Source: Candidatus Rokuibacteriota bacterium
Lineage (GTDB): Bacteria > Methylomirabilota > Methylomirabilia > Rokubacteriales > CSP1-6
NCBI GenBank assembly: GCA_003221435.1
Contig: QHRS01000091.1
Location: 1 to 41,534 of the forward strand
Length of the DNA stretch: 41,534 nt
Direction: 5' to 3'
The notes below the pieces were generated by a model that searched no databases, was not told the origin of the DNA, and worked only from the letters and a program-made list of their open reading frames with translations. This document shows, piece by piece, positions 694-33,097 of the stretch (within the stretch, counting starts at the first letter, position 1; each line of letters begins with the position of its first letter). A program made the translations under genes and the position numbers.

Positions 694-1263
694 TCAGGCG
701 CGGCTGCCGGGCTTGATCGCGCGGCTGCCGGCCTTGCAGAGCGGGCACTCCTCCGGCTTGAAGGTCGGCACCGAGATGGTGGCGAGGGCCGCCCGCTTCA
801 CCGCGAAGGCGGCCGCGCCTCCGCTGCGATCGATCAGCGCCCCGACGCCGACGACGAGCCCGCCCGAGTCCGCTACGGCCCGCATGACCTCGCGCGTCGA
901 CCCCCCCGTGGTGACCACGTCCTCGACGACGAGGCACCGCTCGTCCTTCGCGATCGAAAATCCGCGGCGCAGGCGCATGACGCCGTTCTCGCGCTCGGTG
1001 AAGAGCGCACGGGCGCCGAGGGCGCGCGCGACCTCGTGCGCCACGAGGACGCCACCGAGCGCGGGGGCGATGACGATCTGGACCTGGTCCTCTTTGAAGC
1101 GCCCCGCCAGCTCGGCGCAGAGCGCTGCCGCGTGGTCCGGATACTGCAGCACGAGCGCCGACTGCAGGTAGGTGTCGGAGTGGAGCCCCGAGCTGAGCAG
1201 GAAATGACCGCGCAGCAGCGCGCCCGTCTTCTCGTAGAGGGCGAGCGTGTCGGCGGGAGTCAG
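694..1263 (-). CDS. pyrE: Orotate phosphoribosyltransferase
   Basis: C-terminal part of ORF 694..2040: LYEKTGALLRGHFLLSSGLHSDTYLQ...CLVVEDVVTTGGSTRE (PRPP-binding motif). There is no in-frame ATG/GTG/TTG near the conserved N-terminus. The only plausible start is the CTG at 1263..1261, which overlaps the pyrF stop (CTGA). Confidence 0.85.
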   Translation of the reverse strand: MTPADTLALYEKTGALLRGHFLLSSGLHSDTYLQSALVLQYPDHAAALCAELAGRFKEDQVQIVIAPALGGVLVAHEVARALGARALFTERENGVMRLRRGFSIAKDERCLVVEDVVTTGGSTREVMRAVADSGGLVVGVGALIDRSGGAAAFAVKRAALATISVPTFKPEECPLCKAGSRAIKPGSRA

Positions 1264-1962
1264 GCCATTTGCTCCAGGATCCCGCGGGCAGCCGCGGCCG
1301 GGTCCGGCGCGGCCGTGATCGGCCGGCCGACCACGAGGTAATCGGCGCCGGCGCGAATGGCGGCGGCCGGCGTCGCCGTGCGAACCTGATCGTCGGCGCC
1401 GCCGCCCGCGGGGCGGACACCGGGCGTCACGATCACCCACGTCCGCGGCATCAGGGAGCGCAGCCGGCGGATCTCGTGTGGCGAGGCGACGCAGCCGTCG
1501 AGGCCGGCCTCGCGGGCCCGCTCCGCCAGGTGCACGACGTGGCCCTCGACCGAGCTGGCGAGACCGAGGTCGTGCTGGAGAGCGGCGCGGCCGAGGCTCG
1601 TCAGCACCGTCACGCCGAGGCAGATCGGCCTCGGAATGCCGAATTCCTTCGCCGCCTCTGCCGCCGCCTCTGCCGCCGCCCGCATCATGGCCGTGCCGCC
1701 GGATCAGCATGAAGACCGCGAGCCGGGTCGCCTCACGCACGGCGCCCGCGACGGTGTTCGGGATGTCGTGGAACTTGAGGTCGAGGAAGACCTTGAAGCC
1801 GCGCTTCCGCGCGTGCTCGACCGCGGCGGGGCCGGCGGCGGTGAAGAGCTGCGGGCCGATCTTGCACCCGGTGGCGACGCCGCTGAGCCGGTCGAGCAGG
1901 CGGTCGGCGTCGCCGAGCGTCTCGACGTCGAGCGCGACGAGCAGCCGGTCCTCACCCTTCAC
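1260..1962 (-). pseudogene. pyrF: Orotidine-5'-phosphate decarboxylase, reading frame broken near 1700-1705
   Basis: The N-terminal part ([13 protein letters not shown]...FLDLKFHDIPNTVAGAVREATRLAVFML) is in the frame of ORF 694..2040. The C-terminal part (SGGTAMMRAAAE...DYLVVGRPIT...ILEQMA) is ORF 1260..1688. The span is 703 nt, which is not a multiple of 3. The conserved TVHA residues expected between FML and SGG are missing, consistent with loss of about 11 nt. Confidence 0.8.
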
Positions 1963-31816: not shown

Positions 31817-31837
31817 GCGCGTCCTATCATTTGCGGC

Positions 31838-33097
31838 ATGAAGCGACTCCTCCGTCGCCTCGCGAGCCGCGCCTCCGAGTCCGCCGGCCTGCCTCCGCTG
31901 ATGCTGAGCGGACACGAAGAGATCCCCCTGATCGTCAATCGGCTCACCGCCCTCAAGGCGGAGATGGACCGCTCCTTCTACGAGCTGCGCGGCTGGTCGC
32001 GGGCGCTCGGGCAGCGCCTCGGCCCACTCCGGGACGAGCTGGCGCGGAGTCGCAACCTCTTCACGCTCGGCGACACGATCGGCGGCCTCGCGCACAACTT
32101 CAACAACTCGCTCGCGGCGATCCTCGGCTATACCGAGCTGCTGCTGCAAGAAACCGGCGACGAGACGGCGCGCCGCCGCCTGGCGGTGATCCGGCAGGTC
32201 GCGCTCGAGGCGGGCGCCACGGTCCGCCAGCTCCAGGAATTCATCGCGCAACAGCCGCAGGTTGCCTTCGGCCCCGTCGCGCTCCAGCCGCTCATCGCTG
32301 ACGCGCTCGCGCTGACCGAGCCGCGGTGGCGCGACGACGCGGAGCGCCGGGGCATCACGATCGCCGTCATCCGCGACGTCGAGTCAGCGCCCCCGGTGGA
32401 GGGCAACTCCGTCGAGCTGCGCGACGTGTTCGTCCAGCTCATCATGAGCGCGGTGACCGCGATGCCGCGCGGCGGCGCGCTCACGATCCGCGCGTGGGGC
32501 GAAGAGTCGGGTTGGGTCTTCGCCGAAGTCAGCGACACCGGAGGCGGGGCGCGCGAGCTCCTGCATCTCTCGCCGATCATCGAGCGGCACGGCGGGTCGA
32601 TCACCGTCACGCGGGATGGCGCGACCCGCACGACCGTGCACCTGCGCCTGCTCGGCAGCCGCTACCAGATCATTCCGGCGGCCAGCGAGCCCCCGCCGCT
32701 TCAGGCCGGCCAGGCGCGGCGCGTCCTTCTCGTCGAGGACGATCCGAGACTGCTGCGCGCCCTCGCCGACCTGCTCCAGCGGCACGGCCACGTGGTGGTG
32801 AGCGCGGCGTCCGGCACCGAGGCGCTTGCCGTGTTCGACCCGGCGCGAGTCGACCTCGTCGTGACTGATCTCGGCATGCCCGGCATGACCGGCTGGGAGG
32901 TCGCCGCCGAGGTCAAGACGCGCGCGCCGCAGATGCCGGTGTTCCTGCTGACGGGGTGGGGAGAGACGGTCGCCGCCGACGAGCGGAGCCGGTTCGTCGA
33001 CCGCGTCATCGCCAAGCCCGTGAGCGCCGACGCGCTGCTCGGCTCGCTCGCGCAGGTCGCCCGCTCGGCGCCCGTTGCCCTGCGTGCTCAAACATAG
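31838..33097 (+). CDS. Cytoplasmic hybrid histidine kinase / response regulator with a shortened ATP-lid region
   Basis: H-box GGLAHNFNNSLAAILGYTELL, N-box VQLIMSAVTAM, G1 SDTGGG, then directly ARELLHLSPIIERHGG. Receiver domain: VLLVEDDP...LVVTDLGMPGMTG...IAKP. Confidence 0.85.
   Translation: MKRLLRRLASRASESAGLPPLMLSGHEEIPLIVNRLTALKAEMDRSFYELRGWSRALGQRLGPLRDELARSRNLFTLGDTIGGLAHNFNNSLAAILGYTELLLQETGDETARRRLAVIRQVALEAGATVRQLQEFIAQQPQVAFGPVALQPLIADALALTEPRWRDDAERRGITIAVIRDVESAPPVEGNSVELRDVFVQLIMSAVTAMPRGGALTIRAWGEESGWVFAEVSDTGGGARELLHLSPIIERHGGSITVTRDGATRTTVHLRLLGSRYQIIPAASEPPPLQAGQARRVLLVEDDPRLLRALADLLQRHGHVVVSAASGTEALAVFDPARVDLVVTDLGMPGMTGWEVAAEVKTRAPQMPVFLLTGWGETVAADERSRFVDRVIAKPVSADALLGSLAQVARSAPVALRAQT

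Follow-up and report, generated by a model that had tools for sequence, protein, structure and literature searches.

A contig of 41,534 nucleotides (nt) from Candidatus Rokuibacteriota bacterium (GenBank assembly GCA_003221435.1, contig QHRS01000091.1) carries several conserved genes with short internal losses, and raises the question of whether the organism is losing these genes or whether the sequence misrepresents them. The genes concerned are pyrF, carB, an NtrX-like sigma54 response regulator gene, an NtrY-like histidine kinase gene, lepA and a DUF4390 protein gene. All but the last had been listed in an earlier note made from the sequence without database searches, which added the ATP lid of a hybrid kinase as a possible further case. 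We refer to the whole contig (C51 of a 351-contig, 3.43-Mb assembly) as the window. Comparison with independent contigs indicates, with a probability that we put at about 0.9, that the lesions are local assembly or scaffolding errors in a short-read metagenome-assembled genome (MAG) of a strain-rich soil Rokubacteria (Methylomirabilota) population. The organism most likely has intact pyrF, carB, ntrX, ntrY, DUF4390 and lepA.

Contigs from independent assemblies, representing this population or a near-identical one, were fetched by exact-protein look-up with intact neighbour genes. Near-identical contigs derive from the BioSamples SAMN08902887, SAMN08902886 and SAMN08902877. Look-up with carA returned L081 (ENA ERZ28573530, scaffold_11749), which matches window 16283-4369 at 99.8% identity apart from discrete places. 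The lepB look-up gave L082-L085, of which L083 is a JGI contig; a small membrane-protein gene gave L087-L089, covering pyrF and the 3′ end of carB; and an acyl-CoA dehydrogenase gave L086, which is colinear with window 25889-41534. The best NtrY homologue, P0121 (742 amino acids, aa), led to the MEGAHIT contig L095, and a search of genome contigs for carA relatives provided one useful relative among the matches listed (L001, 74% identity). Exact look-ups with the hybrid kinase and thioesterase of the window found no match, and those with the L086 hybrid kinase and thioesterase and with the L081 NtrX returned the same scaffolds again and nothing further. The comparator contigs and homologues with intact genes are 97-99.9% identical to the window, and the flanks of the lesions differ from the independent contigs by only about 0.1-0.2% substitutions. 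Some 37 kb of the window was open to this cross-check, and six gene-damaging structural errors were found in it, among them all five that the earlier note had listed without reservation.

The first two lie side by side in the pyrimidine genes. In pyrF (orotidine 5′-monophosphate decarboxylase, 1260-1962, minus strand), a loss of about 11 nt removing a TVHA motif had been proposed; set beside three independent contigs and a relative at 75% identity, the gap is exactly 11 nt, at 1702/1703, taking out the (I/N)VHA codons and shifting the frame. The two fragments fit positions 2-78 and 88-220 of the Pfam OMPdecase model with 79-87 absent, and L087, L088 and L089 each encode an intact PyrF of 234-237 aa. 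L089 is identical to the window downstream of this site, and a clearly different population starts exactly at the NVHA motif. In carB (carbamoyl-phosphate synthase large subunit, 1952-5114, minus strand), the frame switches at 2190-2193, and the estimated 40-nt loss in the MGS-like domain amounts to 38 nt (HGLEVEVIHKVAE, at about 2193) when set against the intact gene of L088. The MGS domain is thereby split into model positions 4-26 and 40-94, with 27-39 absent. L087 is also damaged here, with a deletion of 48 nt against 38 nt in the window, and the right-hand boundary of the two deletions is identical.

Two further observations were made in this part of the window. Towards the 5′ part of carB, identity between window 4369-4830 and L081 11700-12158 drops abruptly from over 99.9% to about 83%, which points to a chimeric join to a different population below 4830, in either the window or L081. 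The second concerns pyrE, which has no ATG, GTG or TTG near its expected start (window 1260-1265, minus strand); an in-frame CTG overlaps the pyrF stop as CTGA, where the relative L001 (at about 6700) has GTGA. The CTGA is also present in the independent contig L087 and is therefore not an assembly slip, and the gene call on L087 starts pyrE late, giving 152 aa. A similar CTG/CTGA pattern had already been remarked upon for livG at 36548.

Three more lesions affect adjacent genes on the minus strand. The NtrX-like regulator (10718-12016) lacks 66 nt in frame at 11953-11956, as had been noticed from the missing 22 aa of its receiver domain: the window protein has 432 aa, while its three nearest homologues (P0242-P0244, 97% identical) have 454 aa, the absent residues being GVLEDEGYRVTAIGSGAEALAR. 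Only positions 38-105 of the Pfam receiver model are matched, behind a 20-residue N-terminus. The L081 protein is different again (447 aa, 21 nt missing), and both deletions resume at the same base. In the NtrY-like kinase (12024-14224), the loss of about 30 nt before the H-box, with its frame shift, resolves at the junction 12719/12718 into 36 absent nt (DLTELLKAQRLA, directly before the H-box) and 7 stray nt (GCATGGC), a net change of -29, when compared with L095 and P0121. The frame change falls between the PAS and HisKA domains. Homologues in this clade have 738-746 aa, and P0121, encoded on L095, is intact at 742 aa; the L081 NtrY is an outlier of 776 aa, carrying a 34-aa chimeric insert that resembles the homologous piece of another population. 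The sixth lesion, overlooked in the earlier note, is in the DUF4390 gene (14226-14765), where 27 nt encoding SVLTKEFKV are missing in frame at 14481/14480. Its intact form is deduced from the L081 flanks together with Pfam, the score rising from 54 to 73 bits once the nine residues are restored. At this site L081 itself has a 10-N gap, a duplicated 18-nt flank and low-GC (guanine plus cytosine) junk sequence. L095, the MEGAHIT contig, extends from window 14480 to 32 nt past 11956, so that both of its ends lie at lesion sites.

The lesion in lepA (EF4, 22840-24570, minus strand) is of another kind. Here an inverted patch stands in place of 249 nt (83 codons) of domain III: 206 nt at 23523-23728, read on the plus strand, are 99% identical to the reverse complement of 24211-24416 (minus strand), which belongs to the GTPase domain of the same gene. 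The extent of the patch can be drawn at about 190-206 nt, with junctions at 23538 and 23728; one of them (junction 2) has 10 nt of microhomology (TTGATCGTGA), and the other (junction 1) 1-4 nt. Pfam recognises a part with GTP_EFTU and D2 and a part with EFG_C and LepA_C, and between them stands the patch, coding on the plus strand. The inverted duplication plus deletion that had been described here is borne out both by self-comparison and by L083, which encodes an intact LepA of 596 aa and whose identity to the window falls from 99.6% to 97.4% across the lesion.

Inverted and repeated segments were also seen outside lepA. On contig C181, 324-523 and 1241-1440 form a short-range inverted duplication like that of lepA (200 nt, 100% identity), and on C300, 1-366 and 751-1116 form another (366 nt, 98% identity) as a fold-back at the contig start. 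In the lepB-hemW intergenic region (window 22023-22166), the window and L082 are about 99 nt longer than L083, L084 and L085, and the flanks match twice, as in a tandem duplication. Since each form is backed by two assemblies, the difference looks like a real indel between strains rather than an error.

What the comparison shows for the six lesions taken together is that intact counterparts exist: L087, L088 and L089 for pyrF, L088 for carB, L095 and P0121 for ntrY, P0242-P0244 for ntrX and L083 for lepA. None of the window lesions is reproduced in any independent contig examined, and the damage found elsewhere differs. At the same time, all six sites are also defective in other assemblies, as alternative deletions, an N-gap, a chimeric insert, contig ends or switches of population. 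Such patterns are what assembly-graph break points leave behind in a community rich in strains and species, and are unlike mutations in one genome. The coding signal agrees: the GC content at third codon positions (GC3, about 0.9), codon log-odds and residue conservation persist at full strength in the shifted frame as far as the normal stop, and the fragments fit Pfam models end to end.

The same type of damage extends over the whole assembly. A codon-usage frame-switch scan, which pinpoints the shifts in pyrF and carB to the exact base, found 163 candidates in 3.43 Mb (4.8 per 100 kb), compared with 3 (7.2 per 100 kb) in the window contig, which is therefore ordinary for this assembly. Scanned in the same way, 57.6 kb of independent contigs from the same or near-identical organisms gave no hits. 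For 20 random candidates from other contigs, both fragments were joined, and a break was called definite where one Pfam domain or gene crosses the junction; 11 were definite, 3 probable, and 6 unclear or at gene boundaries. Definite breaks usually lack 15-50 residues and fall in rpoA (C216:8735), metK (C143:7239), COX1 (ctaD, C46:7127), glmS (C181:3231), AcrB, a liv permease, an SDR, a PQQ dehydrogenase, and a Pyr_redox_2 enzyme, as well as in a receiver domain interrupted at the DLV..MP motif and a further hybrid kinase interrupted at the lid. A living bacterium cannot have frame-broken rpoA and metK, and these breaks must therefore be artefacts. The impression that losses occur at conserved motifs reflects at least in part an ascertainment bias, because a reader without tools sees only losses at motifs known to that reader; the DUF4390 loss went unseen. 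Conserved stretches common to co-occurring relatives may also genuinely favour graph breaks.

There is a plausible route by which such errors could arise. The assembly has an N50 of 14 kb, 69% GC and 8,070 Ns in 152 runs, whose lengths (1-169) vary continuously and hence represent scaffold gaps of estimated size from paired-end scaffolding. The assembly graph would break where co-occurring related strains or species share or diverge in sequence, where coverage is thin, or both. Contig ends would then be abutted directly, without Ns, by the scaffolder or an automated correction step, and the 11-66 nt between them dropped; in lepA the gap would be filled with a mis-oriented fold-back piece. N-gaps of 1-169 nt would be joins with a positive size estimate, and the lesions plausibly joins with an estimate of zero or less. 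The algorithmic step would be a scaffold join with an estimated gap of zero or less, re-assembly during automated error correction, or a fold-back or hairpin path.

Three other causes were considered. Microhomology-mediated deletion between direct repeats does not fit, as the junctions have 0-4 nt (bar one in lepA) and the nearby AAGGTG and GGGCT repeats mispredict the products. Drop-out of GC-rich sequence does not fit either, the missing segments having 56-68% GC, not above their surroundings. Purely random low-coverage gaps are insufficient, since assemblies of other samples would not then be interrupted at identical bases.

The interpretation as assembly error has to be weighed against several observations. 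The junctions were judged from assembled contigs, and at 97-99.9% identity the contigs with intact genes could represent sister strains and not the very same genotype. The 10-nt microhomology in lepA would equally suit a polymerase template switch. Breaks recur at the same bases in the assemblies of different samples, so the sites are not random coverage gaps, and something in the population or in the sequence is special at them. One version of this last point is that the recurrent break bases mark real boundaries of micro-diversity, such as edges of recombination blocks or segregating indel alleles of core genes, with some of the deletions being true minority alleles; we regard this as improbable.

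A separate set of sites also interrupts independent assemblies. GC-rich palindromic repeats at window 9486-9544, 15020-15184, about 19119 and 41408-41490 coincide with anomalies there, namely a cluster of substitutions and indels, a 144-N gap (L081 1100-1243) and a contig end (L082). This coincidence with a gap, an indel cluster and a contig end implies that the repeat family breaks assemblies too.

Could the lesions instead be real deletion alleles, of a sub-lineage undergoing gene decay with pyrimidine auxotrophy and loss of NtrYX and EF4, and the intact contigs merely its sister strains? In favour of this, the sequence shows the lesions beyond doubt, the comparators with intact genes fall short of full identity to the window, and auxotrophy is possible in uncultured soil bacteria. 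Such a lineage would, however, have suffered six gene-breaking events in 37 kb while its flanks accumulated only about 0.1-0.2% substitutions, and it would carry the same type of break in essential genes genome-wide (rpoA, metK, COX1). Deletion sizes at the same base differ between two assemblies, contig ends and N-gaps of other assemblies lie exactly at the sites, and codon bias has not decayed downstream of the shifts. We consider real deletion alleles very unlikely. The pyrimidine auxotrophy that a loss of carB and pyrF would imply is not supported. Among the three explanations offered in the earlier note, a chimeric or collapsed assembly and a consensus from a heterogeneous population are together strongly supported by the intact versions in near-identical independent contigs and by the scaffolded nature of the MAG, and real decay is not supported.

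Amplification chimeras, in which template switching during multiple displacement amplification (MDA) or in single-cell or low-input material gave inverted duplications and deletions that came to dominate the consensus, would fit only the geometry of the lepA event. MDA chimeras classically take the form of an inverted copy with an accompanying deletion; one lepA junction has the 10-nt microhomology, and the genome holds two more inverted duplications. The explanation is nevertheless more doubtful still. All near-identical records are bulk metagenome scaffolds or contigs (labelled 'METAG' or k141), and paired-end scaffold gaps of estimated size are present in the genome; the suggested amplified single cell has no support. 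Assemblies of other samples break at these sites too, which would be unexpected of random chimeras, and most lesions (5 of 6) are plain deletions with 0-4 nt of microhomology.

Among the genes under suspicion, the hybrid kinase alone proved to carry no lesion. This protein (31838-33097, plus strand) combines HisKA, a degenerate HATPase and a receiver domain, and its short ATP lid, at about 32540-32575, had been suspected as an in-frame loss. The lid is 23 aa shorter in all ten of its closest homologues (59-74% identity, from Logan, JGI, ENA and NCBI assemblies), and the longer form occurs only in more distant relatives. The independent scaffold L086 has the same 419 aa, colinear and with no indel. 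Shared by the ten closest homologues and by the indel-free L086, the short lid is a natural feature of the whole clade rather than a lesion. That the other genes are likewise natural short isoforms, normal for the lineage, is barely credible: the kinase lid is the only instance, ortholog alignments refute it for pyrF, carB, ntrX, ntrY, DUF4390 and lepA, whose nearest homologues or near-identical contigs have the long form, and three of the lesions shift the reading frame and so cannot be isoforms.

The kinase clade has features of its own. An alignment of the window protein with its homologues P0003-P0014 shows a Rokubacteria clade of HisKA-HATPase-receiver proteins in which the ATP lid (F/G2 region) has lost about 23 residues. 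HATPase_c is undetected by Pfam in the short-lid clade, and the longer relatives are likewise without a canonical GxGLG G2 box. From these sequence features, the short-lid protein may be a pseudo-kinase or a phosphotransfer or phosphatase module. Between the window and L086, 4 of the 24 substitutions cluster at 32544-32572.

The remaining genes were placed with a gene map drawn from a GC3 and codon-usage frame plot of the window. The minus strand carries pyrE, pyrF, carB, carA, pyrC, pyrB, pyrR, a PhyH-like gene, the ntrX-like and ntrY-like genes, DUF4390, lpxC, rsmE, prmA, dnaJ, grpE, hrcA, hemW, lepB, lepA and sugar-nucleotide genes. On the plus strand are two acyl-CoA dehydrogenase genes, the hybrid kinase-like gene, a thioesterase gene, a liv ABC transporter, an MBL-fold gene and ggt.

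How do these lesions compare with known phenomena? They share with pseudogenes and reductive decay the frameshifts and internal deletions in otherwise recognisable genes, and differ in that essential genes are affected, flanks are near-identical to intact copies, codon usage is not relaxed and the lesions are not shared by independent assemblies. The lepA case resembles fold-back or inverted-duplicate mis-assemblies and chimeras of amplified DNA, in that a segment of about 200 nt is reinserted in reverse about 480 nt away, replaces native sequence and shows short microhomology; the fold-back at the start of C300 resembles the same mis-assemblies. Unlike these, the lepA patch lies inside a 41-kb contig, with a junction on either side, and no evidence of amplification was found in the records and assembly compared here.

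The closest parallel is found in the local assembly errors described by Chen, Anantharaman, Shaiber, Eren and Banfield (2020, PMC7111523), which are reported to be prominent in IDBA-UD scaffolds and to leave corrupted gene sequences in databases. There, as here, short stretches of consensus corrupt coding genes at scaffold joins and where strains are not unique, and N-gaps with overlapping flanks co-occur, an error type that we see in L081. Errors are defined there by missing read support, and here they were recognised by comparing contigs. The density in the present genome (about 3-5 frame breaks in every 100 kb, with 6 lesions in 37 kb of the window) is several-fold above a worked example given there, of 13 errors in 1.13 Mb. 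The parts of that paper drawn on make no specific mention of one thing seen here, breaks at identical bases in assemblies of different samples. Rokubacteria MAGs from grassland soil have been produced with IDBA-UD, scaffolding and automated correction of scaffold errors (PMC6784897). This pipeline fits the proposed mechanism.

The feature is almost certainly an assembly artefact, and no new biology follows from the lesions themselves. The consequences lie in how the genome is used, because this is apparently a species-representative MAG with on the order of at least 100 broken or shortened genes, rpoA and metK included, and protein databases receive truncated proteins from it. For a 'lesion at a conserved motif' in a fragmented high-GC MAG, the default should be an assembly artefact until the site has been checked against independent contigs or reads. 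Metabolic reconstructions made from this MAG, describing the organism as a pyrimidine auxotroph or as having no EF4 or NtrYX, would be wrong.

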